64,000 nucleotides of DNA. Origin: an uncultured Hyphomicrobiales bacterium. GTDB taxonomy: Bacteria; Pseudomonadota; Alphaproteobacteria; Rhodospirillales; CAYFNC01. The position numbers and the translations under genes were made by a program. Numbering within the stretch: the stretch's first letter is position 1; the number at the start of each line of letters is the position of its first letter. The stretch lies in assembly GCA_964344345.1 (NCBI GenBank), contig CAYFNC010000012.1, positions 12,716-76,715 of the forward strand, written 5' to 3'. A model generated the notes under the pieces. It made no database searches. It was not told the origin of the DNA and saw nothing but the letters and a program-made list of their open reading frames with translations. This document shows, one piece after another, positions 1 through 64,000 of this stretch.

Positions 1-1
1 C

Positions 2-4400: not shown

Positions 4401-4407
4401 GGGGCCG

Positions 4408-4998: not shown

Positions 4999-5036
4999 CG
5001 GGGCGCTTGCGTAACGTGGGATAGGGACGGTGAACG

Positions 5037-5537: not shown

Positions 5538-5815
5538 TGGCCGATCGCACCCTGGCGGAGACCACCCGCGACCTCGTCAAGGCGACCAAGGCCTTGGAAG
5601 AGCCCGGCGCGGGCCACATGGGCACGCTGGAATGCCGGGTCGATGGGCTCAGAACCAAGGCGCTCTCCACCCCCGCGCGCGACTTGGCGGACCTTCGGGC
5701 CCGGTTGGAGCTGATGCGCGACGCCATCGCGGGGCTGGGGCCCAGGGGGTATCTCCTCAATCTCGCGGACGCGGCGGTGGAGGACGTGAAAAGGCTGCTC
5801 GCGCAAGAGGAATAA
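5537..5815 (+). CDS. Hypothetical protein, translationally coupled to the upstream ORF
   Basis: ATG 5537 overlaps the upstream TAA (TAATG). 92 aa, helical and Ala/Leu/Arg-rich, no recognised family. The track ORF begins earlier, at 5498. Confidence 0.45.
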   Translation: MADRTLAETTRDLVKATKALEEPGAGHMGTLECRVDGLRTKALSTPARDLADLRARLELMRDAIAGLGPRGYLLNLADAAVEDVKRLLAQEE

Positions 5816-5892
5816 ACGCCGCGTCGATTTTCAAGCCCGCCGAAACGGGACATGAAACGCCACGATCCGTCTTGAAGCGTTCCGGGGCCCCG

Positions 5893-6357
5893 TTACGCCG
5901 CCCTGGTCGCCGCCGATTCCGTCAGAAGCGCGAACAGCGCCTCGGGCGCGTCGGTGCCGCGGAGCTTTTCGCAGACGTCCTTGTCGCGGAGCAGGCGCGA
6001 GACCTGGGCCAGCGCCTTCAGGTGGTCGGCGCCGGCGGTTTCCGGGGCCAGGAGCAGGAAGATCAGGTCCACCGGCTCGTCGTCGATGGAATCGAAGTCC
6101 ACGGCGCGCTCCAGCCTGGCGAACACCCCGTAGAGCCGGTCGATTTCCGCCAGCTTGCCGTGCGGGATGGCGATGCCGTTGCCGACGCCGGTGGTGCCCA
6201 GTTTCTCGCGCTCCATCAGCACGTCGAAGATGGCGCGCTCGGTCAGGCCGGTGATGTCGGCGGCGCGTCGCGCGAGGTCCTGCAACGCCTGCTTTTTGCT
6301 GGTGGCGCGAAGAGACGCGACCACGCCGTCCACGGTGAGGAGATCGGAGATTTCCAT
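5893..6357 (-). CDS. ptsN: PTS IIA-like nitrogen regulatory protein PtsN (EIIA-Ntr)
   Basis: 154 aa. The motif GTTGVGNGIAIPHGKL contains the phosphorylatable His. The position downstream of rpoN-hpf matches the conserved locus. Confidence 0.92.
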   Translation of the reverse strand: MEISDLLTVDGVVASLRATSKKQALQDLARRAADITGLTERAIFDVLMEREKLGTTGVGNGIAIPHGKLAEIDRLYGVFARLERAVDFDSIDDEPVDLIFLLLAPETAGADHLKALAQVSRLLRDKDVCEKLRGTDAPEALFALLTESAATRAA

Positions 6358-6395
6358 GACCGTTCCCTAATGCTTCGACCGGGCTCCGGCGACGC

Positions 6396-6974
6396 CTAGT
6401 TGGCGTCGCTGGGGTCGATCCACCCGATGTTGCCGTCGGCGCGGCGATAGACCACGTTCAGGCCGCCGTGGGCGCTGTTGCGGAACATCATTACCGGCGT
6501 GTTCGCCAAGTCCATGCGCATCACCGCCTCGCTGACCGAAAGCGTGGAGATGCCGTGGGGCATCTCCGCCACGATGGCCGGATTGTCGCCGATGGCGCCG
6601 CCGTCGTCGGCCTCTTCCCCCTCGGGGGCGAGGATGGAGTACTGCGCGGGCAGCACCTCCTCGTTCTCGCCGCGGGATTTGTGGTGGTCGCGGATGCGGC
6701 TCTTGTACTTGCGAAGCTGCTTGGTGATGCGGTCCAACGCGCCGTCGAAGGCGGCGTAGGCGTCGTCCGCCGAGCCCTGCCCCTGCACCACCAGCCCGCG
6801 CCACGGATGGACCGAGATGTCCACGCGGAACGAGTGGGAGACGCGGGAATAGACGACCTTGGCGTCCAAGGCCTTCTCGAAGTACTTGGTGACCGTCGTG
6901 TTGAGATTTTCCTCGACATGGCCGCGCAACGCGTCGCCGACGTCGAGGTTCTTGCCCTTGATCGAAATTTCCAT
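6396..6974 (-). CDS. hpf: Ribosome hibernation promoting factor, long form
   Basis: 192 aa. It starts MEISIKGKNLDVGDALRGHVEENL, the RaiA/HPF N-domain, and has a C-terminal dimerisation domain. It lies immediately downstream of rpoN. Confidence 0.92.
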   Translation of the reverse strand: MEISIKGKNLDVGDALRGHVEENLNTTVTKYFEKALDAKVVYSRVSHSFRVDISVHPWRGLVVQGQGSADDAYAAFDGALDRITKQLRKYKSRIRDHHKSRGENEEVLPAQYSILAPEGEEADDGGAIGDNPAIVAEMPHGISTLSVSEAVMRMDLANTPVMMFRNSAHGGLNVVYRRADGNIGWIDPSDAN

Positions 6975-7093
6975 TTTAAGGCTGTCCTGCCAAGACTTGG
7001 AGACAGAAGTCAGTCCGACGACACGCGCCGGATAACGAGACCGAAGGAGAGCTTGAAAGTCGAAACCGCCCCCCTCGGCGGATGAAGGCGCAG

Positions 7094-7122
7094 ACCATAA
7101 TTCGACGCCTTCGAGGAGTCAA
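7094..7122 (-). promoter_or_regulatory. Candidate sigma-70-type promoter for hpf
   Basis: On the minus strand: TTGACT, 17-nt spacer, TATGGT. It lies in the AT-richer rpoN-hpf spacer, about 120 nt upstream of the hpf ATG. Confidence 0.3.
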
Positions 7123-7146
7123 TATTGTGACATATTTTATACAAAA

Positions 7147-8658
7147 TCACAAGCTTACGCCTTTCTCGCGGCGGCGCTGAACGGACGACGGAATCCCCAT
7201 GGCTTCGCGGTACTTGGCCACGGTCCGGCGCGCGATATCGACGCCGTCGCCTTTCAGGACGGCCACGATCTTGTCGTCGGACAGCACGGTTTTCGCGGTC
7301 TCCTCGTCGATCATGGCCTTGATGCGCTGGCGGATGGATTCCGCCGAATGGGCTTCGCCGCCGTCGGTGCTGGCGATGGCGGTGGTGAAAAAGTACTTCA
7401 TCTCGAAAATGCCCCTGGGGGAGGCGATGTACTTGTTGGACGTCACCCGGCTGACGGTGCTTTCGTGCATCTCGATCACCTCGGCGATGTCGCGGAGCAC
7501 CAGGGGCTTCAAATGCTGCACCCCCCTGGCGAAGAAGGCGTCCTGCTGGCGCACCAATTCGGCCGCCACCTTCAGAATGGTGTTGGCCCGCTGGTCAAGG
7601 GACTTCACCAGCCAGTTGGCGGACTGCAGCCTCTCGGCCAAGTACTGCTTGTCCTCTTTCTTCAGGGGCTGTTCGCTGACCTCGGCGAAGTAGTGGTTGT
7701 TGACCAGCACACGGGGCAGGGTGTCGTTGTTCAGCTCCACCAGCCAGCCCCCCGCCGGATTGGGCCGCATGATCACGTCCGGGGTCACCGGCTGGGCGAT
7801 GGAGTGGTCGAAGGCGAGCGCGGGCTTGGGGTCGAGGGCGCGGATCTCGGCGACCATGTCCACCAGGTCCTCGTCGTCCACGCCGCAGACCTTTTTCAGC
7901 TTGGCCACGTCGCGCTTGGCGAGAAGATCCAGGTTCTCCAGAAGCGCCTGCATGGCCGGGTCGAGCCGGTCGCGGTCGCGAAGCTGCAGCGCCAGGCATT
8001 CGGCGAGGTCGCGGGCGAAGATTCCCGGCGGGTCGAAATGCTGGACGCGCAGGAGCGCGCGCTCCACCCGCGGGGGATCGCATTCCAGCATCGCGGCCAC
8101 GCCTTCCAGCGAGCCGACCACGTATCCGGATTCGTCGAGCATGTCGATCAGGTGCAGCCCGATCACGCGATCGACGGGGTCGTCGATCTCCATGGACAGC
8201 TGGGCGGCCAGGTGGTCGCGCAACGTGACGTCGCCGGACAGGGTCTGCTCCAGGTTGGGGCCGTCCTCGTCGAACCCCCCTCCGCCGCCGCTTCGCGACC
8301 GCCAGTCGGCGAAGGCGGGGTCGGACAGGCCCGCGTTGTCGGACGGGCTGTCGTTGTTCCAGACGTTGTCGTAGTCCATGTCCAGGGTGGAGTTGTCCGC
8401 GCCGCCCGGGTCGTCGGCGGCGGGAATTTCGGCGGGCTCGGCGGTCGCGGGCGTTTCATCCGGGGCGGCGTCGGCCGGGGACTCGGAAAAGTCGTCGCCT
8501 TCGCCCCGCTCCAGAAGCGGGTTCTGCTCCAGCTCCTGCTCGACGTATTCGGTAAGCTCCACGTTGTTGAGCTGCAGAAGCTTGATCGCTTGCTGCAACT
8601 GCGGCGTCATCACCAGAGTCTGGCTCTGGCGGAGGTCCAATCTCGGTGAGAGCGCCAT
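7147..8658 (-). CDS. rpoN: RNA polymerase sigma-54 factor
   Basis: 503 aa. The N-terminus reads LRQSQTLVMTPQLQQAIKLLQL. It has an acidic linker and a C-terminal HTH with RpoN-box-like ARRTVAKYRE. Confidence 0.97.
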   Translation of the reverse strand: MALSPRLDLRQSQTLVMTPQLQQAIKLLQLNNVELTEYVEQELEQNPLLERGEGDDFSESPADAAPDETPATAEPAEIPAADDPGGADNSTLDMDYDNVWNNDSPSDNAGLSDPAFADWRSRSGGGGGFDEDGPNLEQTLSGDVTLRDHLAAQLSMEIDDPVDRVIGLHLIDMLDESGYVVGSLEGVAAMLECDPPRVERALLRVQHFDPPGIFARDLAECLALQLRDRDRLDPAMQALLENLDLLAKRDVAKLKKVCGVDDEDLVDMVAEIRALDPKPALAFDHSIAQPVTPDVIMRPNPAGGWLVELNNDTLPRVLVNNHYFAEVSEQPLKKEDKQYLAERLQSANWLVKSLDQRANTILKVAAELVRQQDAFFARGVQHLKPLVLRDIAEVIEMHESTVSRVTSNKYIASPRGIFEMKYFFTTAIASTDGGEAHSAESIRQRIKAMIDEETAKTVLSDDKIVAVLKGDGVDIARRTVAKYREAMGIPSSVQRRREKGVSL

Positions 8659-8668
8659 GGGATTTCGC

Positions 8669-9478
8669 CTAGAGGCTGAAGCGGTCGCCCAAGTAGACCC
8701 TGCGGACCTCTTCGTTGCCGACGATGTCGTCGGGCGAGCCCTCCATCATCACCATGCCGTCATGGATGATGTAGGCGCGGTCGATGACATCCAGGGTTTC
8801 CCGAACGTTGTGGTCGGTGATCAGGACCCCGATGCCGCGGTCCTTGAGATGGGACACCAGATCCCGGATGTCGCCGACGGCGATGGGGTCGATGCCGGCG
8901 AAGGGTTCGTCCAGCAGGATGAAATGAGGGTTGGACGCCAGCGCGCGGGCGATCTCGACCCGCCTGCGCTCGCCGCCCGAAAGCGCCAGCGCCGGGGTGT
9001 GGCGAAGGTGGGTGATGGAGAACTCGGCCAGCAGAGCCTCCAGGATGGCGCGGCGGCGCTCCCGCGATTTCTCGATCACCTCCAGAACCGCGCGGATGTT
9101 CCGCTCCACGCTGAGGCCTCGGAAGATCGACGCTTCCTGCGGCAGGTAGCCGACGCCCAGCCGGGCGCGGCGGTACATGGGCAGGTCGGTGATGTCGCGG
9201 CCGTCCAGCGTGACCTGGCCGTAATCGGGCTGCAGAAGGCCGGTGATCATGTAGAAGCAGGTGGTCTTGCCGGCGCCGTTGGGGCCCAGAAGGCCCACGA
9301 CCTCGCCCCGTTGGATCGACATCGACGCGCCGCGAACCACGGGGCGCTTCTTGAAGCGCTTGCCCAGGTTGGTGGCGATCAGGCCGGGATTGTCCGCAAC
9401 CAAGCGCGGCCCAGAGGCGTCGCCGTCGATCGAGGCGTCGTCCGCGTCACCGGGCAACTGTGTGACGTTATCTGTCAT
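8669..9478 (-). CDS. lptB: LPS export ABC transporter ATP-binding protein LptB
   Basis: Walker [10 protein letters not shown], signature LSGGERRR and Walker B ILLDEP. The position between lptA and rpoN supports the call. It carries an N-terminal extension of about 30 aa. Confidence 0.92.
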
Positions 9479-9551: not shown

Positions 9552-10379
9552 TTACTTTCCCTTAATTTTGTCCATTTTTTCCGGTTGTAGCAAGCCTTTG
9601 ACGCGCCCCCGGCCGAGCGGCCCCTTGCAGGCGAACAGCTTGCTGACGTTCGTCTGCATGTTCACCACCGCCTTGCAGCCCTTGAGAACGTTGTCGCCCC
9701 GGATCAGCGTGACGTTCCCGGTCAAGGTGGCGACCTTTCTCTCCACGTCGTAAACGCCCCGGTCGGCCCGGACCTTGTCCGAGTCCGTGTCGATCTTGAT
9801 GTTGTCGTAGGCGTCGACCCGGTAGATCTTGTTGCGCTTGGTTTTGGTCTTCTTGAAACGGGCCACCAGCACGTCGGCGCGGAGCCGCTTTCCATCATGG
9901 ACGGCGAACGCGTTGCCGCGCGCAACGGCTTGTTGCTTCTTTTCCCAATACTCCATCTGGTCGTCGGCGGTGATCAGGTTTTCCTTGGTCTCCAGCCGGA
10001 CGCGGCCGCCCTTCAGCACCAGCACAGCCTTGTCCACGTCGTAGATCGCGTTCTGGCAGGTCACCTTCTCGCCCGGAGAGACGATGCGCACGTTGCCCTC
10101 GGCGTCCAGTCGCCAGATGTCGCTGCCGCCGCCCTGTTTCTCGCGGTAGTAGGCCCTGAGCATGTCGGCGAGAACGTTTACGTCGCCCTTGGTCGCGCGG
10201 GCGTTGCCGTGGGCGAGGAAGATCTGCTCGTCCTGTTGCCATTCGATGCCGTTCTCGGCCTCGATCTCGATGGGCTCGCCGGAATCGCCGCCCCCGAAGC
10301 CGAGACTCTGCGCCCAGGCGCCATGATGGCCGAAAGCCAACGCGGCCCAAAGGAGTGAAACGAACGCCAGCCGCCGCAC
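9552..10379 (-). CDS. lptA: LPS transport periplasmic protein LptA (OstA-like)
   Basis: 275 aa with a signal peptide (AFGHHGAWAQS) and repeated beta-jellyroll-type segments (GNARATKGDV..., ARGNAFAVHDG..., LTGNVTLIRGDN). Synteny supports the call. Confidence 0.85.
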   Translation of the reverse strand: MRRLAFVSLLWAALAFGHHGAWAQSLGFGGGDSGEPIEIEAENGIEWQQDEQIFLAHGNARATKGDVNVLADMLRAYYREKQGGGSDIWRLDAEGNVRIVSPGEKVTCQNAIYDVDKAVLVLKGGRVRLETKENLITADDQMEYWEKKQQAVARGNAFAVHDGKRLRADVLVARFKKTKTKRNKIYRVDAYDNIKIDTDSDKVRADRGVYDVERKVATLTGNVTLIRGDNVLKGCKAVVNMQTNVSKLFACKGPLGRGRVKGLLQPEKMDKIKGK

Positions 10380-10381
10380 GG

Positions 10382-11044
10382 TCAGTTCTCCTTCGAATGG
10401 GGATAGAGCAGCACCCGGGATTTGCCGGTCAACACCATGGTTTTTCCTTGGTCCAGCAATTGAAACCCTTCTCCCTCGACTTCGCCGAAAGAGCCGTGCC
10501 CCCTGATCGGGACGTCTCCCTTGGCGACGCTTTCCTCCAGGTCGATCAAGGCCTTTTCCGTATGGAACTCGTATCCGGAATCATGGAACAGGCTGACCGC
10601 GCCCACAAGGCTAAGTTTGTTCTCCTTGTGCAGGTAGACCCCGGATTCGGCGGTCAGCGCCATCCAGGCCCCGTCCTCGAGCGCGATGTCCGCCTTGGGC
10701 ATTTCCAGCTCCACCGGCTTGGTTTTCTTCGGGTCCACGTTGCGGGCGATGTCGGCGGAGATGGTGAAGGGCTGGCGGTTCTTGTCGGCGCCGTGGAAGC
10801 GCGCGTTGACCAGGGACGGCTCCTCCTTGCTTTTGGTCGCCACGTTTGCGAATCCGATCTGGAACTGGCCTTCCTTGGGGCGCAGGTGGGGCCAAGCGGC
10901 GACCAGCGCGATCAGCACCGCCGCGCCCAGCGGCAGGACGACCTTCATCGCTTGGACGAAGCGGCTGTAGGCGCTGTTGTAGCTCCGTCCGTCCTCGGCG
11001 TGGAGGAAGTCCTCGCCGAATCCCGCCTTGGGCGCCTCGCTCAC
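10382..11044 (-). CDS. lptC: LPS export system protein LptC
   Basis: Only the last 220 codons of track ORF 10382..12079 are credible. A GTG start at 11044 overlaps the kdsD stop (GTGA). It has one TM helix (VVLPLGAAVLIALVAAW) followed by a beta-rich periplasmic domain. Synteny is kdsD-lptC-lptA-lptB. Confidence 0.8.
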   Translation of the reverse strand: MSEAPKAGFGEDFLHAEDGRSYNSAYSRFVQAMKVVLPLGAAVLIALVAAWPHLRPKEGQFQIGFANVATKSKEEPSLVNARFHGADKNRQPFTISADIARNVDPKKTKPVELEMPKADIALEDGAWMALTAESGVYLHKENKLSLVGAVSLFHDSGYEFHTEKALIDLEESVAKGDVPIRGHGSFGEVEGEGFQLLDQGKTMVLTGKSRVLLYPHSKEN

Positions 11045-12036
11045 GCCACCCCCGCGCGCAGGCAGTCGTGGATGTGCAGAATGCCGATGGGCGTCTCGCC
11101 CTCCATCACGAAAAGCGTGGTGATGGCGTTGGCGTTCATGATCTGCAGGGCCTCGGACGCCAGCATGCCGGGGGGAATGGTCTTGCCGCCCTTGGTCATG
11201 ACCTCGCCCGCCTTGCGATCCATGATCCCGTCGCTCATGTGGCGTCGCAGATCGCCGTCGGTGATCACGCCCCGCATGGTCCCCGCGTCGTCGACGACGC
11301 CGACGCAGCCGAAACGCTTGTTGGTCATGATCAGGATGGCGTCGGACATGAGCGTGTCGGCGGAGGTCAAGGGCAGTTCGTCGCCCGCGTGCATGATGTC
11401 GGACACCTTCAACAGCCTCCGCCCCAGCTTGCCGCCGGGATGGAGCGCGTGGAAGTCGTCGGCGGAGAAGCCCTTGCGCTCCAGCAACGCCACCGCGATG
11501 GCGTCGCCCAGCGCCAGCATGGCCGTGGTCGAGGTGGTGGGCGCGAGCCCCATGGGGCAGGCCTCGGCGATGGCGGGCAGCGCAAGGACCGCGTCGGCGG
11601 CCTTGGCCAGCGCGCTGTCGGCGTTGCCGGTCATGGCGATCAGCGGAATGGCGAACCGCTTGCAGTGGGCGACGGTGTCGGCCAGCTCCTCGGTCTCGCC
11701 CGAATTGGACAGCGCGATCACCGCGTCGCCCTCGGCGATCATGCCGAGATCGCCGTGGCTGGCCTCGCCGGGATGAACGAAGAAGGCGGGGGTGCCGGTG
11801 GACGCCAGCGTCGCGGCGATCTTGCGCGCGACGTGGCCGCTTTTGCCCATGCCGGACACCACGGCGCGCCCCGAAAGCGACATCAGGATGTCCAGGGTGG
11901 CGACGAAGGATTCGTCCAGGGCCTCGGCCACCGCGCGGATGCCGTTTCCCTCCAGGTCCAGGACCCGCTTGGCCGATGCGATGTCGGGGTGTTCGGTTTG
12001 GGATGGATCGACGCCGACCGCCCAGGGAAAGGTCAT
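11041..12036 (-). CDS. kdsD: Arabinose-5-phosphate isomerase KdsD/KpsF (SIS domain plus two CBS domains)
   Basis: SIS motifs are GMGKSGHVARKIAATLASTG and SNSGETEEL, followed by tandem CBS domains. ATG 12036 gives 331 aa, the typical length. The alternative TTG at 12117 would add 27 aa. Confidence 0.9.
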   Translation of the reverse strand: MTFPWAVGVDPSQTEHPDIASAKRVLDLEGNGIRAVAEALDESFVATLDILMSLSGRAVVSGMGKSGHVARKIAATLASTGTPAFFVHPGEASHGDLGMIAEGDAVIALSNSGETEELADTVAHCKRFAIPLIAMTGNADSALAKAADAVLALPAIAEACPMGLAPTTSTTAMLALGDAIAVALLERKGFSADDFHALHPGGKLGRRLLKVSDIMHAGDELPLTSADTLMSDAILIMTNKRFGCVGVVDDAGTMRGVITDGDLRRHMSDGIMDRKAGEVMTKGGKTIPPGMLASEALQIMNANAITTLFVMEGETPIGILHIHDCLRAGVA

Positions 12037-12118
12037 GGTGCTTTGGCCTTGATTCAACGGATGCGAAACGCGCGCCCAACGCCCGGGAAGTATGGCCTTG
12101 CGCCGTTGAATCGTCAAC

Positions 12119-12757
12119 TTAGTGGGAGAAGATGTCCTCTTCGCCCCAGCCCAGGAGGTCCAGCTCCGCCCGGTGGGGCAGGAAGCCGAAACAGGCTTCG
12201 GCGATTTCCACCCGATCCTCGCGAATCAGCATGTCCTGCAGCCGCTCCTGAATCGCGTGGAGGTAGAGCACGTCGTTGGCCGCGTACTGAAGCTGCTTGT
12301 CGCTGAGCGCGTCCGCAGCCCAGTCGGACGACTGCTGCTCCTTGGACAGGTCCACGCCCAGAAGCTCCCTGCAGAGGTTCTTGAGCCCGTGGCCGTCGGT
12401 GTAGGTGCGGACCAGCTTGGACGCGATCTTGGTGCAATAGACCGGCGCGCAGTGGACGCCCAGGTATTTCTTGATCACGGCGACGTCGAATCGGGCGTAG
12501 TGGAAAATCTTGGTCACCCGCCCGTCGGTCAAAAGCGCCTTCAGGTTCGGCGCGGCGTAGGACACCCCGTCCGGGTCGGGGGGGAACTGCACCAGATGGC
12601 ATTCGCCGTCGCCCGCGGACAGCTGCACCAGGCACAAACGATCGCGATGGGGGTTCAGCCCCTGGGTTTCGGTGTCCACGGCCACCCGGTCGCCGAAATC
12701 GACGTCGGCGGGCAGGTCGCCCCGATGCAGGTGAATCTTCGGCGTCTTGGCGCTCAT
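12119..12757 (-). CDS. 3'-5' exonuclease (short RNase D-like, DEDD family)
   Basis: 212 aa. Motifs: VAVDTETQGL (ExoI, DxE), NLKALLTD...KIFHYARFDV (ExoII) and QLQYAANDVLYL (ExoIII, YxxxD). Confidence 0.85.
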   Translation of the reverse strand: MSAKTPKIHLHRGDLPADVDFGDRVAVDTETQGLNPHRDRLCLVQLSAGDGECHLVQFPPDPDGVSYAAPNLKALLTDGRVTKIFHYARFDVAVIKKYLGVHCAPVYCTKIASKLVRTYTDGHGLKNLCRELLGVDLSKEQQSSDWAADALSDKQLQYAANDVLYLHAIQERLQDMLIREDRVEIAEACFGFLPHRAELDLLGWGEEDIFSH

Positions 12758-12795
12758 GCTGTCAACCGCCCCCCAGCGGCCCGCCCAAGGAAAAA

Positions 12796-12882
12796 TGGTG
12801 CCCAGGAGAAGACTCGAACTTCCACGACCTTGCGGCCACAGGTACCTGAAACCTGCGCGTCTACCAATTCCGCCACCTGGGC
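12796..12882 (-). tRNA. tRNA-Leu (anticodon CAG)
   Basis: Minus-strand 87-nt cloverleaf: GCCCAGGTGGCGGAATTGGTAGACGCGCAGGTTTCAGGTACCTGTGGCCGCAAGGTCGTGGAAGTTCGAGTCTTCTCCTGGGCACCA. Acceptor stem GCCCAGG/CCTGGGC, anticodon loop TTCAGGT, long variable arm, T-loop GTTCGAGTC, and an encoded CCA. Confidence 0.95.
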
Positions 12883-13023
12883 GAGCGGGAATTCGCGCCG
12901 TTTCAGGCGCCTAAGTTAGGACTCCTAGGCCACGGGGGGGCGGCCTGTCAACCAGCTTTGTTCTTGACGTGGGCGGCAAGGCGCAAGACATATACCCAAA
13001 GGACGCGGGCAAGGAGGTGCGTG

Positions 13024-14034
13024 ATGGCCAATCGCGTGGTTACGGTTTTCGGAGGTTCGGGTTTCATCGGGCGGCACGTGGTGAAGCGCCTGGCGGAGGA
13101 CGGCTGGGTGGTTCGGGTCGCGGCCCGGGACCTGGAATCCGCCATGTTCCTGAAACCCCTGGGAAACGTGGGGCAGGTGACGCCGCTCGCCATCGACGCG
13201 TCCGACCCGGCCATGGCGGCGCTGGCCGTGGACGGCGCGGACGCGGTGATCAACCTGATCGGGATTTTGTATGAATCGGGCAAGCGGACGTTTCAGCGCA
13301 TGCATGTGGACGTGGCGGGCTCCATCGCCAAGGCGGCGGCCGACGCGGGGGCGAAGCACCTGATCCACGTCTCGGCCATCGGGGCCGACAAGACGTCCCA
13401 ATCCGGCTACGCCCGGACCAAGGCCCTGGGCGAGGAGGCGGTCCTAGCCGCCTTCCCCAACGCGGTGATCCTGCGCCCCAGCGTGGTGTTCGGGAGCGAC
13501 GACAACTTCTTCAACATGTTCGCGGGCATGACCCGGATCTCGCCGTTCCTACCCGTGTTCGGCTGCCCGCTGTTGCCGACGTTGAAAAGAACCGAGGGTG
13601 GCGGATTCTCGCTCGACATCTACGGCGGCGGCGGGACCAAGTTCCAGCCCGTGTTCGTCGGCGACGTGGCGGACGCGGCCATGGCCGGGCTCCGCGACCC
13701 GAACGCGCGCGGCAAGACTTTCGAACTCGGCGGCCCCCGGGCGATCAGCTTCAAGGAGGTCATGGACATCATCCTGGCCAACATCGGGCGCAAGCGTTTG
13801 ATCCTGCCGATTCCGTTCTTCGTGGGCGCGATGCAGGCGACGATCCTGGGCCTGATGCCCAAGCCGCTTCTGACCCGGGACCAGGTGACGCTGCTGAAGC
13901 GCGACAACGTGGTCGCGGCCGGGGCGCTGACGCTGGCCGACCTCGGCGTCGAGGCGACGCCGGTGGAATCGGTGGTTCCCAAGTACCTGTCCCGCTACAG
14001 CCCGCCTCGGGCCAAGGGGATACTGGCCGCCTGA
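13024..14034 (+). CDS. NAD(P)-binding epimerase/dehydratase-fold protein, complex I NDUFA9-like family
   Basis: The start at ATG 13024 is preceded by a perfect SD (aaggaggtg). The Rossmann motif is VFGGSGFIGRHVV. 336 aa. The track ORF starts earlier, at 12958. Confidence 0.8.
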   Translation: MANRVVTVFGGSGFIGRHVVKRLAEDGWVVRVAARDLESAMFLKPLGNVGQVTPLAIDASDPAMAALAVDGADAVINLIGILYESGKRTFQRMHVDVAGSIAKAAADAGAKHLIHVSAIGADKTSQSGYARTKALGEEAVLAAFPNAVILRPSVVFGSDDNFFNMFAGMTRISPFLPVFGCPLLPTLKRTEGGGFSLDIYGGGGTKFQPVFVGDVADAAMAGLRDPNARGKTFELGGPRAISFKEVMDIILANIGRKRLILPIPFFVGAMQATILGLMPKPLLTRDQVTLLKRDNVVAAGALTLADLGVEATPVESVVPKYLSRYSPPRAKGILAA

Positions 14035-58000: not shown

Positions 58001-58420
58001 ATGTTCGACCGCGCCATCGCCATCACCGGCCTCGACCACGCCCGCGCCGCGCTTCGGGCCGCGTCCGACCTCGGCATGCCCGTGGCCTTGCTGTGCGCGT
58101 CGCCCGCCCTTGGGGCGCAGGCGTTCCTGGCCATGGTCCGGGCGGCGCGGGAGGAGTTTCCGGATGCGGAGGTTCTGGCGGTCATGGACTGCGGTGACGA
58201 GCCGGGGCGCGCTTTGAACGCGTTTCGCCATGGGGTTCGGGCGGTTCGGGTCGATCTCGCGCCCGAGGTCCTCGCCCGGGTCCGGGATATCGCGGGCCAG
58301 TACGGCGCGGCGTTGTGGGAGGGGGAGGTCCTGGAGGGCTCCGAACCCACGTATGAGTCTTGCCGCGACCGGCTGGCGCGATTGCCAGGGGGCGCGGGTT
58401 CGGATAAGGGTGGGGCATGA
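58001..58420 (+). CDS. Hypothetical protein, translationally coupled to thiE
   Basis: 139 aa with coding-like composition. The stop overlaps the thiE start (ATGA). I recognised no family. Confidence 0.55.
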
Positions 58421-59052: not shown

Positions 59053-59085
59053 TCCGGGCATAGTGGACCCGCCGAATTTATCCAT

Positions 59086-59104
59086 CGGTCATCGAGAATG
59101 ACCG
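59086..59104. promoter_or_regulatory. Palindromic candidate operator, copy 1 (CGGTCAT-N5-ATGACCG)
   Basis: CGGTCATCGAGAATGACCG is flanked by CCAT/GTGG, which extends the symmetry. It lies in the thiE to phosphatase-kinase spacer. Confidence 0.45.
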
Positions 59105-59170
59105 GTGGTCGCCCCTCAAACGCCGGGCGCGTCCTCCGGACGCTTGGCTTTCGGCGCGGGGGCGCCGCCA

Positions 59171-59189
59171 CGGTCATCTTCAATGACCG
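59171..59189. promoter_or_regulatory. Palindromic candidate operator, copy 2 (CGGTCAT-N5-ATGACCG)
   Basis: CGGTCATCTTCAATGACCG has half-sites identical to copy 1. It lies 85 bp downstream of copy 1 and 21 nt upstream of the GTG 59210 start. Confidence 0.45.
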
Positions 59190-59209
59190 CTGGCGTAAGG
59201 GGGAGCGCC

Positions 59210-60952
59210 GTGTCGAGCGAAGGGGAAACAGGGCTGGACCGTCTGGGGCTGATCGCGGCCATGGGCCGCGACTTCGCCGCCAGCCTGGACATCGAGGCGA
59301 CGCTGGAAAAAGCGCTCGACCGCATCACCCGGGAAGTCAGCGCCGTTGGCGGCGCCCTGTTCCTGCTCGACGGCGCGACGCTCACCTGCCACGCGTCGGG
59401 CGGCGGGACGGACATCACCGGGCTCACCCTTCCCGCCGACAAGGGCATCGTCGGGCGTTGCGTCACCGACAACGCGTCCCAGATGGTCCGCGACGTGTCC
59501 AAGGACCCGAGCTTCCACGGCGGCTTCGACGAAAAGACCGGGTTCCAGACCAAGTCCATCATCTGCGCCCCCATGAGCGTCCAGGACCAGCGCATCGGCG
59601 CCATCGAGCTGGTGAACAAGGCGGGCGGCGACGGATTGTTCTCGGACGAGGATCTGACGTTGCTGGAAGCGCTGAGCACCTCCGCCGCACTCGCCATCCT
59701 CAACGCCCGCCAAGCCGCCGCCCTGGTGGAGCAGGAGCGCGTCAAGCGCGAGCTGGAGTTGGCGGCGGAAATCCAGCGCACCTTGTTGCCCGAACCCCGC
59801 GACGCGCCCTATCCCGTGCACGGCCTGAACCATCCGGCGCGCATGGTGTCGGGAGATTTCTACGACTACTTCGAACTGGACGACGGGCGCATCTGCTTCA
59901 ACATCGGCGACGTGTCGGGCAAGGGCATGAACGCGGCGTTGCTGATGGCCAAGACCGCGAGCCTGTTCCGCTGCCTCGGCAAGGCCATCCACCAGCCGGG
60001 CCGCCTGCTCACCCAGGTGAACGCGGAAATCTGCGAGACCGTGACGCGGGGCATGTTCGTGACCATGGTGGGCGGCATTTACGACCCGGAAACCCGTGTG
60101 GTCCGCCTCGCCAACGCCGGGCACGAGCCGCCGCTCGTCTTCGCCCCGGACGGGACCTGCCGCGCCATCGAGGCCGAGGCCCCGCCGCTCGGCGTCATTC
60201 CGTTCGCGCCGGAGGACGAGGGCTTTCCCGAAACCGAAATCAAGCTCGACGGCGGCGCGCTCTACATGTTCACCGACGGCGTGACCGAGGGCCGGAAAGA
60301 GGACGGCGAACAGCTCGGCGCCGACGCGGTCATGGAGCGCATCCGCGAATTCACCGCCTTGCCGCTGGCCGAGCGCCTGGACACGGTGGTCGAGCCGCTC
60401 AGCCGGACCGAGGGCCCCCTTTACGACGACATCACCATCATCGCCGTCGATTCCAGCCCAGACGCCGCCCACGAACGCCCCAAGCCCGCCGCCGACCCGG
60501 TGACCGTGTCGGGCCGGGCGAGCGAGGAGCCTTTGCTGAAAATCCACTTCAACGCCCTTCCCGACCGCTTGAAGCTGGTCCGGAGCGCGGTGTCCGAGGC
60601 GGCCAAGCTCTGCGGCTGCAACACCTTCACCGCGCTCGACATCGTGCTGGCGGTGGACGAGGCGTGCCAGAACGTGATCCGCCACGCCTACGGCCACGAC
60701 CCCGAGGGCGAAATCGAGATGGAAATCCGGCGCAACGGGGGCGAGCTCATCATCCTGCTGCGCGATTTCGCCGAGACCGTGGACCCGGAAACCATCAAGC
60801 CCCGGGACCTGGACGACGTGCGCCCGGGCGGGCTCGGCACCCACTTCATCAACGAGATCATGGACTCGGTCGAATGGCTGGCGCCCGATGGCGGCGGAAA
60901 CCTGTTGAAATTGGTCAAGAAAGCATGCGAGACACACCATCATGAAGCATGA
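59210..60952 (+). CDS. Fusion protein: GAF sensor - PP2C/SpoIIE-type Ser phosphatase - RsbW/SpoIIAB-type Ser kinase (HATPase_c_2)
   Basis: I prefer GTG 59210 because of the SD aagggggag; alternatives are ATG 59183 and 59105. GAF region: GALFLLDG...GIVGRCV...SIICAPM..IGAIELVN. PP2C region: SGDFYDYF, IGDVSGKGMNAALLMA, MFTDGVTE and YDDITIIAV. Kinase region: N-box EACQNVIRHAY and G-box RPGGLGTHFI. Confidence 0.85.
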   Translation: MSSEGETGLDRLGLIAAMGRDFAASLDIEATLEKALDRITREVSAVGGALFLLDGATLTCHASGGGTDITGLTLPADKGIVGRCVTDNASQMVRDVSKDPSFHGGFDEKTGFQTKSIICAPMSVQDQRIGAIELVNKAGGDGLFSDEDLTLLEALSTSAALAILNARQAAALVEQERVKRELELAAEIQRTLLPEPRDAPYPVHGLNHPARMVSGDFYDYFELDDGRICFNIGDVSGKGMNAALLMAKTASLFRCLGKAIHQPGRLLTQVNAEICETVTRGMFVTMVGGIYDPETRVVRLANAGHEPPLVFAPDGTCRAIEAEAPPLGVIPFAPEDEGFPETEIKLDGGALYMFTDGVTEGRKEDGEQLGADAVMERIREFTALPLAERLDTVVEPLSRTEGPLYDDITIIAVDSSPDAAHERPKPAADPVTVSGRASEEPLLKIHFNALPDRLKLVRSAVSEAAKLCGCNTFTALDIVLAVDEACQNVIRHAYGHDPEGEIEMEIRRNGGELIILLRDFAETVDPETIKPRDLDDVRPGGLGTHFINEIMDSVEWLAPDGGGNLLKLVKKACETHHHEA

Positions 60953-61274
60953 AACAACGGAAAAGGACGGCGCCTGCGTCGTCGCGTTCGAAGGCGACAT
61001 GGACCTGGACAGCTCTCCCGGCGCCCGCAAGGCGCTGTTGGACACGGTCGCCAAGGGAAAACCCATCGTGGTCGATTTGTCCCAGGTGGGCTACATCGAC
61101 AGTTCCGGCGTGGCGTCGCTGGTCGAGGCCCTGCAGGCGGCGCGCAAGAAGGGCGTCGGGTTCTCCTTGGCGGCGCTGAGCGAGGCGGCGGGCCGGGTCC
61201 TGCAGCTCGCCAGGCTCGACAAGGTGTTCACCATCCACGGAACCGTTGACGACGCCGTCGCCAACACCAAGTAG
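60942..61274 (+). CDS. STAS-domain protein (anti-sigma-antagonist / MlaB-like)
   Basis: 110 aa. The motif VVDLSQVGYIDSSGVASLVEA keeps the conserved phosphorylatable Ser (Ser54/55, nt 61101..61106). It overlaps the upstream gene by 11 nt. Confidence 0.88.
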   Translation: MKHETTEKDGACVVAFEGDMDLDSSPGARKALLDTVAKGKPIVVDLSQVGYIDSSGVASLVEALQAARKKGVGFSLAALSEAAGRVLQLARLDKVFTIHGTVDDAVANTK

Positions 61275-61282
61275 GAACCGGC

Positions 61283-62098
61283 ATGGCCGACAGCGACACG
61301 GACAGCGCGCCGACCCGCTTCATGGAAAGGGTGGGCAAGACCACCGTCCGGGGGGTGGAGGAGATCGGGTTCTGCGGCACCCTGCTCTGGGACAGCCTTT
61401 ACTGGCTGGTCTTGGGCCCCCGCATGCGCCAGCCCGTGCGCCACGCACACGTGTTCGCCCAGATGATGGAGATCGGCATCCTCGCCATTCCCATCGTCGC
61501 GGTCATGGCGGCGACCATCGGCATCATGCTGGCGATCCAGGGCATCCACACGCTCCGCATCTTCGGCGCGGAATCGCGGGTCACCATCGGAATCGCGCTG
61601 TCCATGACCCGGGAGTTCGCGCCGCTGATCACCGGAATTCTGGTCGCCGGGCGGTCGGGCTCGGCCTTGGCGGCCCGGCTCGGCACCATGACCATCAACC
61701 AGGAATTGGACGCGCTCCAGGTCATGGGCATCAACCCGGTGCGCTATCTGGTCACGCCCGCGCTTCTGGGCGCGCTGGTCATGGTTCCGGCGTTGACCAT
61801 GATGTCGGACATCGTGGGGCTGTCCGCCGCCGGGGTCTACGTGGCGCTCGACCTCGGGCTCAGCATGGCGGCCTATTGGGACCAGACCATTGAAATCCTG
61901 TCCGTGGACGACGTGATCCACGGGCTCGGCAAAAGCGCCATCTTCGCCATCCTGATCGCGGTGATCGGGGTGGCCAACGGGGCCTCGGTTCAGGGCGGGG
62001 CCGAAGGGGTGGGCAAGGTCACCACCCGCGCCGTGGTCCAGTCCATCGCCGCCATCGTGGTGACCGACATGCTGTTCACGTTCGTGGTGACCCGTTGA
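61283..62098 (+). CDS. MlaE-family ABC transporter permease
   Basis: 271 aa, polytopic. Motifs: REFAPLITGILVAGRSGSALAARLGTM and ELDALQVMGINP. Confidence 0.88.
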   Translation: MADSDTDSAPTRFMERVGKTTVRGVEEIGFCGTLLWDSLYWLVLGPRMRQPVRHAHVFAQMMEIGILAIPIVAVMAATIGIMLAIQGIHTLRIFGAESRVTIGIALSMTREFAPLITGILVAGRSGSALAARLGTMTINQELDALQVMGINPVRYLVTPALLGALVMVPALTMMSDIVGLSAAGVYVALDLGLSMAAYWDQTIEILSVDDVIHGLGKSAIFAILIAVIGVANGASVQGGAEGVGKVTTRAVVQSIAAIVVTDMLFTFVVTR

Positions 62099-62934
62099 TG
62101 ACCGACGCCACCCCCATCCAAGAACGCCCCAAGGTGATCGAGGTCGAGAAGCTCGTCACCCACTACGGCCCCCGCATGATCCTCAAGGGCGTGGACATGG
62201 ACGTCCACGAGGGCGAAATCATGGTGATCATGGGCGGCAGCGGCTCGGGCAAGAGCACGCTTCTGCGACATATGCTGTCGTTGGAGAACGCGACCTCGGG
62301 CGCCATCAGGATCCTGGGCGAGGACGTGACCCAGATCGACCAGCAGGGCATGTTCAAGCTGCGCAAGAAGCTGGGCGTGGCGTTCCAGGGCGGCGCGCTG
62401 TTCAGCTCCATGACGGTGGGCGAGAACATCCAGTTGCCGCTCTACGAACACACCGACCTCGACCCCATGACCATGGACATCATGGCCCGAATGAAGCTCG
62501 AGGTGGTGAACCTGGCGGGCTTCGAGGATCTGAAGCCGTCCGAGCTTTCGGGCGGCATGATCAAGCGCGCGGCGCTCGCCCGCGCCATCGTCATGGACCC
62601 GCGCATCCTGTTTTGCGACGAGCCGTCGGCGGGCCTCGACCCCGTGGTCTCGTCGGCGCTGGACGATTTGATCTTGAAGCTCCGCGACGCCATGAACATG
62701 AGCATCGTCGTGGTCACCCACGAACTGGACAGCGCGTTCAAGATCGCGGACCGCATCACCGTGCTGGACCGGGGCGACATCCTGTGCATCGGCACCGTGG
62801 ACGAGGTGCGCAACCATCCGAGCGAGCGCATCCAGAACCTGCTTAACCGGCGAATGGAGGACGAGGAGGTGGATCCCGAGGACTACCTGCGCCGCCTGAC
62901 CGGCGAAAAGAACAGCGAAGAGGCCAGGCCATGA
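62095..62934 (+). CDS. MlaF-family ABC transporter ATP-binding protein
   Basis: Walker A GGSGSGKST, signature LSGGMIKR and Walker B LFCDEPSAGLD. It carries an acidic C-terminal tail of about 35 aa. ATGA overlaps occur at both ends. Confidence 0.9.
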   Translation: MMTDATPIQERPKVIEVEKLVTHYGPRMILKGVDMDVHEGEIMVIMGGSGSGKSTLLRHMLSLENATSGAIRILGEDVTQIDQQGMFKLRKKLGVAFQGGALFSSMTVGENIQLPLYEHTDLDPMTMDIMARMKLEVVNLAGFEDLKPSELSGGMIKRAALARAIVMDPRILFCDEPSAGLDPVVSSALDDLILKLRDAMNMSIVVVTHELDSAFKIADRITVLDRGDILCIGTVDEVRNHPSERIQNLLNRRMEDEEVDPEDYLRRLTGEKNSEEARP

Positions 62935-63905
62935 AGAACGCCAAAATAAACTACGTCGCGGTGGGCGGCTTCGTCATCGCCATGGTGGCCGCGCTGATCG
63001 TGTCCATCGCCATGCTGACCGGCCGCACCGGCGCCACCGACGAGTACTACGTCGAGTACGGCAACGTGTCGGGGGTCAAGTTCGGGACCCAGGTGGTCTA
63101 CGAGGGCTATCCCATCGGCCAGGTCGAGGACATCACGCCCGGGGAGCGGGACGGCCGCATGGTCTTTCGCGTCGATCTCAGCGTGAACGAGGGCTGGCGC
63201 ATCCCCAAGGACAGCGTCGCCACCGTGGCGGCGTCGGGCCTTCTGTCCGCCGTGGTCATCGCCATCGAGGCGGGCGAAAGCCCCGTCGCCCACGACCCCG
63301 GCGCCCAGATCGACGGGCGCGAGGCGTCCAACATCTTCGCCGCCATGTCCACGGTCGCGGCCGAAATCAGCGACCTCGCCCGCAACGACATCAAGCCCCT
63401 GCTCGCGGCGCTCAGAGGCACGGTCGGGTCGGTGGGCTCGATCCTGGATTCCGACGGCAAGGTTCTGTTGCAGGAAATCACCGGCATCGCCCGCGACCTG
63501 TCCGAGCGCGCGCCCAAGATTGTCCAGAACCTGGAAACCTTCACCGGGCGCATCACGGACGCGAGCGAGCACGTCTCCAAGTTCGTCACCGCCGAGAACA
63601 CCAAGAAGCTCCAGGGCATGATCAACAACCTGGACGTCACCGCCAGGAACTTCACCAAGCTATCGAAAAACATGGACCAGTTGGCCCAGACCATGAACAA
63701 GCTGGTGACCGAAAACGAGGACGACGTGGCCAAGTCGGTCGAGGAGCTCCGCTACGTCATGGACTCCATGGCCCGGCACATCGACGCCATCAACGAGAAC
63801 GTGGAGGCCACCGCCCGCAACATGAACGAGTTCAGCCGCCAGATCCGGGCCAATCCCAGCCTGCTTCTGGGCGGCGAACCGCCCGAAGATAAAGGAGGCG
63901 AATGA
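62931..63905 (+). CDS. MlaD/MCE-domain substrate-binding protein
   Basis: 324 aa with an N-terminal TM anchor (VAVGGFVIAMVAALIVSIAML), an MCE core (VSGVKFGTQVVYEGYPIGQVEDI) and a long helical C-terminus. Confidence 0.88.
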   Translation: MKNAKINYVAVGGFVIAMVAALIVSIAMLTGRTGATDEYYVEYGNVSGVKFGTQVVYEGYPIGQVEDITPGERDGRMVFRVDLSVNEGWRIPKDSVATVAASGLLSAVVIAIEAGESPVAHDPGAQIDGREASNIFAAMSTVAAEISDLARNDIKPLLAALRGTVGSVGSILDSDGKVLLQEITGIARDLSERAPKIVQNLETFTGRITDASEHVSKFVTAENTKKLQGMINNLDVTARNFTKLSKNMDQLAQTMNKLVTENEDDVAKSVEELRYVMDSMARHIDAINENVEATARNMNEFSRQIRANPSLLLGGEPPEDKGGE

Positions 63906-64000
63906 TGAAGCGCGCAATCGTTCCGGCGCTGGCGCTCGCGTTGGCGCTTTCCGCCTGCTCCCCGACGCCGCAGCCGCCGGACCATTTCTACCGCCTGCAG
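63902..64000 (+). CDS. Lipoprotein, probably the ABC-type transport auxiliary component (3' end cut by the window edge)
   Basis: It starts MMKRAIVPALALALALSAC (lipobox). The start overlaps the MlaD-like stop (ATGA). Only 33 codons are visible. Confidence 0.6.
   Translation, partial: MMKRAIVPALALALALSACSPTPQPPDHFYRLQ

Follow-up and report, generated by a model that had tools for sequence, protein, structure and literature searches.

[quoted passage not shown] The T52E exchange weakens binding, whereas the T52A variant is non-functional yet still binds MlaF, so the role of this hydroxyl is not simply steric. MlaF contributes its C-terminal residues Tyr261, Leu265, and Leu266, which dock in the MlaF-MlaB groove (PMC7367683). 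Switching by phosphorylation has been proposed for E. coli MlaB, but a kinase has never been assigned to it. In the Mpc system (a Mla-Pqi chimera) of Brucella, a STAS domain described as homologous to MlaB is fused to the permease MpcE (PMC12436622). Partner-switching-like modules with outputs other than a sigma factor are also known, for example SypE/SypA of Vibrio fischeri (PMC10120452) and the HenR-STAS-glycosyltransferase system of Anabaena (PMC13555669). Besides SypE, which was named as the precedent for the fused kinase/phosphatase in the original prediction, Rv1364c is a precedent, and it has the same domain order as the enzyme described here.

The locus analyzed here lies at the 3′ end of a 64,000-nucleotide stretch of DNA (the window; contig CAYFNC010000012.1 of an uncultured Hyphomicrobiales bacterium), where six translationally coupled genes encode a GAF-PP2C-RsbW-like kinase fusion, a free-standing STAS protein, MlaE, MlaF, an MCE protein, and a PqiC-like lipoprotein. 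This organization suggests that an envelope lipid transporter is switched on and off by phosphorylation; no description of such wiring was found in the literature searched.

Organization of the operon

All six ORFs were confirmed on the + strand (Table 1). The longest open frame of ORF1 starts at GTG 59105, but the downstream GTG start used in the original prediction is better: a Shine-Dalgarno sequence lies 7 nt upstream of it, the public gene call (P0001) corresponds to it, and a hairpin with a T-run lies inside the longer version. The 11-nt overlap, the 8-nt gap, and the ATGA overlaps at the ORF4/5 and ORF5/6 junctions were as originally described. The ORF3/4 junction, which had also been listed as an ATGA overlap, is TTGATGA; there, the ATG begins at the last base of the TGA stop (a 1-nt overlap), and it is an ATGA-type 4-nt overlap only if TTG 62095 is the start.

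Table 1. Features of the locus (positions within the 64,000-nucleotide window).
Position	Strand	Feature	Evidence
59053..59209	+	Intergenic region between thiE and ORF1, probably holding the promoter; hairpin with a T-run at 59129-59143; GGGGGAG Shine-Dalgarno at 59197-59203	Sequence inspection; terminator-like hit not above chance; no sigma-70 consensus promoter found
59210..60952	+	ORF1, 580 aa: GAF sensor, long helix, PP2C/PPM phosphatase, RsbW-like Ser kinase	Pfam; identical public protein P0001; AF2 model; best solved fold 3ke6 (Rv1364c RsbU+RsbW domains)
59285..59698	+	GAF domain, residues about 26-163	Pfam GAF_2 7e-15; PDB PDE2A GAF-B 5.9e-19; N136-K137-x6-F144-x3-D148 conserved
59645..59785	+	Linker helix of 47 residues (146-192) between GAF and phosphatase	AF2 secondary structure; highly conserved, E174 to R190 nearly all invariant; GAF, coiled-coil, PPM architecture described in PMC12143880
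59879..60451	+	PP2C/SpoIIE phosphatase domain, residues 224-414	Pfam SpoIIE 2.1e-44; D216, D234, D356, G357, D406, and D407 100% conserved in 58 orthologues
60548..60919	+	RsbW/SpoIIAB-type GHKL Ser-kinase domain, residues 447-570	Pfam HATPase_c_2 1.4e-26; aligns to B. subtilis RsbW 6m36_A at 1.8e-08; E484, N488, H492, D519, and GGLG 95-98% conserved; G1 box D-F-A rather than D-x-G
60942..61274	+	ORF2, free-standing STAS protein, 110 aa, overlapping the ORF1 stop by 11 nt; motif YIDSSGV at residues 51-57	Pfam STAS 4.1e-21; AF2 pLDDT 95; Foldseek best hits TM1442, RsbV, and SpoIIAA at TM 0.83-0.91
61101..61103	+		D53, S54, and S55 invariant in 58 orthologues and in a set of 40 sequences (A4); Ser54 aligns to E. 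coli MlaB Thr52; helix 54-70 in the AF2 model
61283..62098	+	ORF3, MlaE-type permease, 271 aa, no fused STAS	Pfam MlaE 1e-66; 29% identical to E. coli MlaE; nearest non-orthologous relatives are STAS-MlaE fusions
62098..62934	+	ORF4, MlaF-type ABC ATPase, 278 aa	Pfam ABC_tran; best PDB hits MlaF of A. baumannii (1.3e-52), P. aeruginosa, and E. coli; 38% identical to E. coli MlaF
62833..62934	+	C-terminal extension of MlaF with the motif D-P-E-D-Y263-L264-R-R266-L267-T-G	Among 59 orthologues: Y 56, L264 56, R266 59, L267 59
62931..63905	+	ORF5, single-MCE protein, 324 aa, with a C-terminal region of about 200 aa that is probably helical, like the MpcD needle	Pfam MlaD at residues 36-115, 4.9e-14; only weak hits to coiled-coil-type families over residues 153-308; faint Helical_needle hit in orthologues; Brucella MpcD is 331 aa
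63902..64000	+	ORF6, 5′ end of the outer-membrane lipoprotein gene, cut by the window end; signal peptide with lipobox LSAC	Sequence inspection; full 203-aa product on the same contig (L081) is PF03886 ABC_trans_aux, the PqiC family

The transporter encoded here is of the Mpc type and not a canonical Mla system. Likewise, although the STAS protein was taken to be the MlaB-equivalent subunit in the original prediction, it is not a member of the MlaB family by sequence or fold: NCBIfam mlaB_1 scored 24 bits against a cut-off of 90, and MlaB ranked only 34th in the Foldseek search, with a TMq of 0.61. By both criteria, it is a full-length RsbV/SpoIIAA type, and its closest folds are phosphorylatable antagonists, including RsbV as solved in complex with RsbW. 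It therefore carries the β5/α4 elements that MlaB lacks, and its docking to MlaF could differ.

Conservation of the gene linkage

To assess whether the enzyme, the STAS protein, and the transporter are linked beyond this genome, the loci of ORF1 orthologues were inspected. The arrangement recurs in at least 592 species-level genomes, which is far beyond chance. Of the best-scoring 80 loci (which are, as in the metagenome scan below, not a random sample), 63 have the kinase domain and at least 3.2 kb of downstream DNA. All 63 have the STAS gene next, 55 are colinear STAS-MlaE-MlaF-MlaD, and 62 have Mla genes. The loci span Alpha-, Beta-, and Gammaproteobacteria, Myxococcota, and MAGs labeled Spirochaetales. 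Magnetospirillum molischianum, in contrast, keeps ORF1-STAS without adjacent transporter genes. Conversely, when metagenome loci were anchored on MlaF, 43 of 43 with at least 3.1 kb of upstream DNA had ORF1 and the STAS gene, and 13 of 13 with 1.3-3.1 kb upstream had the STAS gene; the arrangement was present in 80 of 80 inspected metagenome loci as far as the contigs allowed. Thus, synteny is near universal in both directions. No sigma-70 family gene was conserved next to the block, neither among 250 flanking ORFs within 2.6 kb in 67 loci nor in four fully annotated contexts of ±10 kb.

The nearest relatives of the permease provided further support. Of the 150 nearest MlaE cluster representatives, 97 are at least 340 aa long with an N-terminal extension, and 10 of 10 sampled are STAS+MlaE by Pfam, that is, the same fusion as in Brucella MpcE. 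Loci of this fused type lack the enzyme. Furthermore, in six loci (L024, L026, L029, L062, L068, and L072), the same enzyme and STAS travel with an MlaF that is 55-64% identical to that of the window but only 40-43% identical to that of E. coli, yet they are joined to a canonical-type MlaE (38-41% identical to E. coli, 30-33% to the window), a short MlaD, MlaA, and MlaC; this arrangement is found in some Gammaproteobacteria. Another locus, L036, keeps only enzyme-STAS-MlaF. Each locus has a single STAS-like ORF. Enzyme, STAS, and MlaF are co-inherited across two different MCE architectures.

A possible phospho-switch of the transporter

None of the computational checks refuted the original prediction that the fused enzyme acts on the transporter via the STAS protein, and the comparative data support it. 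The most likely mechanism (estimated probability ∼0.6), which is inferred because neither an experiment nor a complex prediction shows phosphotransfer or STAS-MlaF binding, is a partner-switching-type phospho-relay whose output is an MCE/Mla-family ABC lipid transporter rather than a sigma factor. In this model, the RsbW-like kinase of ORF1 phosphorylates Ser54 of the STAS protein, the PP2C domain on the same chain removes the phosphate, and a ligand bound by the GAF domain (the nearest relatives of which bind cyclic nucleotides) shifts the balance through the conserved linker helix. The STAS protein would be the functional counterpart of MlaB and of the STAS domain fused to MpcE. In its unphosphorylated form, it would dock on the helical subdomain of the MlaF-like ATPase, helped by the conserved C-terminal Y-L-x-R-L helix of the neighboring MlaF, and stabilize or activate the MlaF2E2 motor of a trans-envelope Mpc-type machine made of MlaE, MlaF, a needle-forming MCE protein, and a PqiC-like lipoprotein. 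Phosphate on Ser54 would sit in the middle of that interface and release the STAS protein, which would idle the transporter; the sign of the switch is, like the ligand, inferred. The model is supported by the alignment of Ser54 with MlaB Thr52 and by the MlaF motif Y263-L-x-R-L267, which matches the E. coli Tyr261/Leu265 handshake residues. Although the catalytic residues of both enzyme domains are conserved in at least 95% of orthologues, the deviating G1 box means that kinase activity is not guaranteed.

Other readings appear less likely. The kinase domain of ORF1 might act as an anti-sigma factor, or as an inhibitor of some other regulator, for a target encoded elsewhere that is freed by unphosphorylated STAS, with the transporter genes being co-transcribed only because they belong to the same envelope-stress response. 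The homology of the kinase domain to the anti-sigma factors RsbW and SpoIIAB, the anti-anti-sigma fold of the STAS protein, the fact that Rv1364c (with the same phosphatase-kinase order) is treated in the literature as a sigma-regulating protein, and the M. molischianum locus all favor this view, and an unlinked sigma factor or another partner cannot be excluded from 64 kb of sequence. However, besides the lack of a conserved sigma factor gene in the flanks inspected, flanking genes differ between lineages while the enzyme-STAS-MlaF link persists, even when MlaE and MlaD are exchanged, and STAS is physically fused to the permease in the sister clade; co-regulation alone does not explain this, which renders the reading improbable. 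Similarly doubtful is an inverted switch, in which the kinase domain binds and inhibits MlaF or MlaE in the position a sigma factor would take, and unphosphorylated STAS competes it off. This is the literal logic of RsbW/SpoIIAB systems, and inheritance of ORF1, STAS, and MlaF as one cassette fits either the STAS or the kinase being the MlaF-binding element. Yet, the STAS-MlaE fusions and E. coli MlaB show that it is the STAS that sits on MlaF-type ATPases, Ser54 aligns with an interface residue, and in split variants, the kinase is a separate protein of about 145 aa with no extra domain.

Least likely is that STAS phosphorylation controls an unrelated envelope or biofilm target, as is the case for SypA, and that adjacency to the MCE genes reflects only a shared physiological theme. 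Non-sigma outputs have precedents, but the only genes that, M. molischianum excepted, always accompany the module are MlaF and, in nearly all loci, MlaE, and no other conserved neighbor appeared in the flank census. It is also unlikely that the STAS protein is a constitutive structural subunit, like MlaB, with the kinase domain being a degenerate pseudokinase or scaffold and ORF1 acting only as a GAF-regulated phosphatase on other substrates, or as an assembly factor. In favor of this reading, the D-F-A sequence of the G1 box is conserved in 97% of orthologues, the ATP-lid region is modeled as disordered, and fused-type transporters such as Brucella Mpc work without any kinase. On the other hand, the N-box E/N/H, D519, and the G2 box GGLG are conserved, and keeping a free, diffusible STAS together with both opposing catalytic domains across phyla is hard to explain without phosphocycling. 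Notably, D53-S54-S55 is invariant only in the enzyme-linked STAS clade, whereas the fused STAS domains have Ser or Thr at this position in 70 of 97.

Gene organization of the operon

The six tightly packed genes on the + strand were confirmed (see the table), and the original prediction described their junctions correctly as an 11-nt overlap, an 8-nt gap, and ATGA overlaps, except that the third junction is TGATG instead of ATGA. For ORF1, the start at GTG 59210 was preferred over the longer version, because GGGGGAG lies 7 nt upstream, because the public gene call of 580 aa (protein record P0001) is identical, and because a hairpin followed by a T-rich run is situated inside the longer version. 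This hairpin may be the thiE terminator, although the count of such sites in the region is not above chance. Pfam assigned GAF (7e-15), SpoIIE/PP2C (2.1e-44), and HATPase_c_2 (1.4e-26) to ORF1, and STAS (4.1e-21) to ORF2, a protein of 110 aa. ORF3 is MlaE (1e-66), ORF4 is an ABC ATPase whose best solved relatives are the MlaF proteins of A. baumannii, P. aeruginosa, and E. coli, and ORF5 is a single-MCE protein of 324 aa. ORF6 starts with a lipobox (LSAC) and is cut by the window end. A contig carrying the same sequence (L081) showed that its product is a lipoprotein of 203 aa belonging to PF03886 (ABC_trans_aux, PqiC family), and that the operon ends there, against a convergent gene. As promoter and terminator consensus scans yielded nothing above chance, the operon boundaries rest on gene spacing and on this convergent gene.

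Coordinates of the operon, its features, and neighboring or related loci (L numbers denote the individual loci or contigs inspected)
Sequence	Position	Strand	Feature
Window; L081	54344-57632 (window); 1-8682 (L081)	-	Housekeeping cluster upstream: DUF1178 zinc-ribbon, DUF423, rpsB, tsf, pyrH, frr, uppS, cdsA, dxr, rseP-like protease, bamA
Window	58001-58420	+	ORF of 139 aa overlapping the thiE start by 4 nt; called as a gene on the public contig, no Pfam family
Window	59105		Start of the longer version of ORF1 (rejected)
Window	59129-59143	+	Hairpin GCGTCC-TCC-GGACGC followed by a T-rich run, between thiE and the ORF1 start
Window	59210-64000	+	Six-gene region; ORF1 starts at GTG 59210
Window	59285-59698		GAF domain of ORF1
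Window	60942-61274	+	ORF2 (STAS)
L081	16309-17817	-	Protein of 502 aa with only a weak receiver-domain hit, two genes downstream of the operon, just beyond the window end
L057 (Magnetospirillum molischianum DSM 120)	9872-13304		ORF1 and STAS without the four transporter genes
L062; L065; L068; L072	8857-9585 and 9917-11679 (L062); 5290-7905 (L065); 9941-11710 (L068); 9947-11716 (L072)		Enzyme split in some Gammaproteobacteria into a GAF-PP2C gene of about 430 aa and a separate RsbW-like kinase gene of about 145 aa; L062 and L065 also carry an extra PP2C-only ORF of 242 aa upstream
L083 (1.35-Mb contig)	12180-13836		mlaE and mlaF each called as two adjacent fragments
L085	8140-9942		PHB synthase gene (PhaC_N plus Abhydrolase_1) directly upstream of ORF1

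Architecture of the transporter

ORFs 3-6 have the architecture of the Brucella abortus Mpc (Mla-Pqi chimeric) system, MpcEFDA (PMC12436622), that is, an MlaE- and MlaF-like motor, an MCE protein about twice the length of MlaD (MpcD, 331 aa), and a PqiC-like lipoprotein as the last gene, but no MlaC or MlaA, homologues of which were also not found in the 64-kb window. The MCE domain of ORF5 covers residues 36-115, whereas the ∼200 further residues gave only weak hits to coiled-coil-type families; together with a faint Helical_needle hit in orthologues, this is consistent with a long C-terminal needle region as in MpcD. In contrast to the operon studied here, the Brucella permease MpcE carries an N-terminal STAS domain, which its authors equate with MlaB, and the four-gene operon contains no kinase or phosphatase. 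Here, the STAS is a separate protein, the permease is only 271 aa long and starts 8 nt after the STAS gene, and two extra functions are added upstream.

We searched 1.84 billion cluster representatives with MlaE from the window. After about 20 orthologue clusters of roughly 270 aa, 97 of the best 150 relatives were at least 340 aa long, with the MlaE part starting near residue 100-125. All 10 sampled were STAS+MlaE by Pfam (fused forms are 355-418 aa). Three such loci are four-gene [STAS-MlaE]-MlaF-MlaD-lipoprotein units, or partial units, with no gene for GAF, PP2C, or kinase. This constitutes Rosetta-stone evidence that a STAS placed just before MlaE is a component of the transporter.

Linkage of the enzyme and STAS genes to the transporter genes

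ORF1 has more than 5,000 database relatives, the best 120 of which all have the same three-domain architecture. A search of the plasmid collection yielded only distant relatives of at most 31% identity and, thus, no annotated orthologue context. A scan of one genome per species found at least 592 loci, of which the best 80 were examined; several carriers are cultured strains (Terasakiella pusilla DSM 6293, Paramagnetospirillum caucaseum SO-1, Dongia sedimenti, and Azonexus hydrophilus). The loci examined come mainly from Rhodospirillales, but also from Gamma- and Betaproteobacteria, Myxococcota, and MAGs labeled Spirochaetales. Two of them (L070 and L076) matched only residues 12-413, had neither kinase nor STAS, and were set aside as a different GAF-PP2C family. 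Of the 63 loci with the kinase domain and at least 3.2 kb of downstream DNA, all have the STAS immediately after, 55 are colinear STAS-MlaE-MlaF-MlaD, and 62 have Mla genes. The single exception is M. molischianum, where the STAS is followed directly by the tRNA U5-methyltransferase gene that follows the lipoprotein gene in relatives, which looks like a clean loss or relocation of the four transporter genes. When, conversely, 80 metagenome loci were anchored on MlaF (64-80% identity), 43 of 43 with at least 3.1 kb upstream had ORF1 and the STAS, and 13 of 13 with 1.3-3.1 kb upstream had the STAS.

No sigma factor gene was present in four fully annotated ±10-kb contexts. A Pfam census of 250 flanking ORFs from 67 loci, each at least 130 aa and within ∼2.6 kb upstream or 3.3 kb downstream of the block, revealed no Sigma70_r2 among the families seen two or three times or more, although an unlinked sigma factor is not excluded by this. 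The only sigma-related signal consisted of three weak Sigma70_r4_2 hits (best E-value 6.7e-07), which, judging from co-occurring GerE and Response_reg counts instead of protein by protein, are most likely LuxR-type HTH cross-hits. Flanking genes vary while the block stays constant. Upstream of ORF1 there is thiE in the window but a PHB synthase gene in about ten Rhodospirillales loci (10 of 125 ORFs in one alignment), and aa3-type cytochrome oxidase clusters lie within 10 kb in L083-L085. The 502-aa protein downstream of the operon in L081 was not seen in the other three annotated contexts, although L083 has a different receiver-domain gene (359 aa) about 1.1 kb downstream. The fragmented mlaE and mlaF calls in L083 are probably frameshift errors of the assembly rather than real pseudogenes. 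The housekeeping cluster upstream of the operon, together with a GC content of about 0.67, fits a Rhodospirillales-like alphaproteobacterial chromosome.

Association with a different MCE machine in Gammaproteobacteria

Notably, in six gammaproteobacterial loci the same enzyme and STAS are joined to a different MCE machine. L024, L026, L029, and L062 read enzyme-STAS-MlaE-MlaD(148 aa)-MlaA-MlaC, with MlaF on the opposite strand 3 kb away, whereas L068 and L072 read GAF-PP2C, a separate kinase, STAS, MlaF, MlaE, MlaD, MlaA, and MlaC. Fusion of the two enzymatic activities is, therefore, not obligatory. MlaE and MlaD of these loci are closer to those of E. coli (38-41% and 30-35%) than to those of the window (30-33% and 25-28%), but their MlaF is 55-64% identical to that of the window and only 40-43% identical to that of E. 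coli. One locus (L036) keeps only enzyme-STAS-MlaF. One STAS-like ORF was present per locus in 74 loci, so these canonical-type Mla sets have no other MlaB candidate in the locus. The unit that is inherited together is enzyme+STAS+MlaF, which is what is expected if the STAS acts on the ATPase.

Conservation of catalytic and putative interface residues

In the STAS, D53-S54-S55-G56 is invariant in the enzyme-linked proteins (58 locus orthologues and a set of 40 sequences), whereas fused STAS domains have Ser or Thr at this position in only 70 of 97. The serine lies at the start of a helix (residues 54-70) in the AF2 model, presumably the phospho-acceptor position of SpoIIAA and RsbV. A profile-guided alignment placed Ser54 opposite Thr52 of E. 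coli MlaB (IDS54SG against VDT52GG). [quoted passage not shown] The C-terminal extension of E. coli MlaF inserts Tyr261, Leu265, and Leu266 into the groove between MlaB and the neighboring MlaF. The enzyme-linked MlaF clade has a conserved C-terminal D-P-D/E-x-Y-L-x-R-L-T-G; among 59 orthologues, Y is present in 56, L264 in 56, R266 in 59, and L267 in 59. MlaF from three fused-type loci lacks this exact motif.

In ORF1, the PP2C aspartates D216, D234, D356, D406, and D407 are 100% conserved in 58 orthologues. The kinase domain aligns to RsbW (6m36_A), and E484, N488, and H492 (N-box EACQNVIRHAY), D519, and GGLG (G2) are 95-98% conserved; the G1 box, however, is D-F-A rather than D-x-G. The model of full-length ORF1, which is only of moderate confidence (pLDDT 73, pTM 0.49) and was used solely for domain boundaries and secondary structure, shows GAF, a helix of 47 residues, PPM, a disordered linker, and the kinase. 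The GAF, coiled-coil, PPM arrangement matches the general regulatory design described for these phosphatases (PMC12143880).

Comparison with MlaB and with partner-switching proteins

Like MlaB in E. coli MlaFEDB (Thong 2016, PMC5016091; Kolich 2020, PMC7367683), the STAS is encoded with homologues of MlaF, MlaE, and MlaD, but its gene precedes the transporter genes and comes with a dedicated kinase/phosphatase, whereas none is known for MlaB. Moreover, MlaB (97 aa) is a minimal STAS lacking β5 and α4, whereas the AF2 model of the STAS studied here contains β5 (97-99) and α4 (102-107). It scored 24.2 bits on NCBIfam NF033618 (mlaB_1) against a cut-off of 90, phmmer to MlaB chains in the PDB gave E-values of only 0.014-0.02, and MlaB was Foldseek rank 34 with TMq 0.61. 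TM1442 (3e-16, TM 0.88), RsbV, and SpoIIAA (TM 0.83-0.91) were closer. By sequence and fold, the STAS is, therefore, a full-length anti-anti-sigma type and not an MlaB family member; that it is the MlaB-equivalent subunit, as the original prediction had proposed, is a functional inference from context.

With the RsbU/RsbW/RsbV and SpoIIE/SpoIIAB/SpoIIAA modules, the system shares a PPM phosphatase, a GHKL serine kinase, and a STAS with Ser at the N-terminus of α2. It deviates in that the kinase is fused to the phosphatase, that no sigma factor was found in or near the operon, and that the conserved genetic partner is an ABC ATPase. The best Foldseek hit of ORF1 (7e-16) was 3ke6, the RsbU+RsbW domains of Mycobacterium tuberculosis Rv1364c, which is the only solved protein with phosphatase and RsbW-like kinase on one chain in the same order (sensor, PPM, kinase). 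Rv1364c, however, has a PAS sensor instead of GAF, carries the STAS domain on the same chain, is regarded as a sigma factor regulator, and is not linked to an MCE transporter. In Vibrio fischeri, SypE also combines an RsbW-like kinase and a PP2C phosphatase acting on a free STAS protein, SypA, with an output that is not a known sigma factor (PMC10120452). There, the order is probably kinase, REC, phosphatase, the sensor is a receiver domain, and the target of SypA is unknown and relates to biofilm polysaccharide, not to an ABC transporter.

Proposed mechanism

We propose, by inference, that a ligand of the GAF domain shifts the balance between kinase and phosphatase, that unphosphorylated STAS docks on MlaF and supports assembly or ATPase activity, and that phospho-Ser54 releases it, although both the sign of the switch and the ligand are guesses. 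Such shuttling requires a free, diffusible STAS, which explains why this clade un-fuses the domain that its relatives keep on the permease. That the output is instead an unlinked sigma factor, that the kinase domain is the transporter-binding element, that it is a pseudokinase, or that the STAS acts on an unrelated target was each given lower weight.

Taken further, enzyme+STAS+MlaF may be a portable, ligand-gated phospho-switch cassette, turning trans-envelope lipid transport on and off post-translationally, and plugged into at least two different MCE machines, the Mpc-type needle and the canonical MlaE-D-A-C pathway. We consider this reading about as likely as not (probability ∼0.5). It would represent the first natural kinase/phosphatase pair for an MlaB-type STAS subunit of an ABC transporter. 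How MCE/Mla lipid transporters are regulated is not known, and phosphorylation of MlaB Thr52 has been named as an intriguing but untested possibility (PMC7367683), the only discussion of MlaB phosphorylation encountered. Full-text searches, limited to open-access papers and preprints so that a prior description elsewhere cannot be excluded, found no paper mentioning MlaB together with partner switching, or MlaF or MlaE together with RsbW, RsbU, or SpoIIE. Both STAS subunits of Mla/Mpc transporters and partner-switching modules with non-sigma outputs (SypE/SypA; an Anabaena HenR-STAS-glycosyltransferase system) are known; what is new here is that the two are joined, which would add an ABC transporter to the short list of such outputs.

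The GAF domain would, in this scenario, tie outer-membrane lipid homeostasis to a small-molecule second messenger. Its best solved relatives are GAF-B of PDE2A (5.9e-19), PDE5, and the cAMP-bound GAF of Lcd1, and N136-K137-x6-F144-x3-D148-L149 appears to be a near-match to the NKFDE motif of cyclic-nucleotide-binding GAF domains, which hints at a cNMP ligand. Public sources name the orthologues (e.g., protein records P0003, P0015, P0307, and P0320) "sigma-B regulation protein RsbU" and "anti-sigma B factor antagonist"; as no sigma factor was found linked to them in the loci surveyed, these names are likely to mislead.
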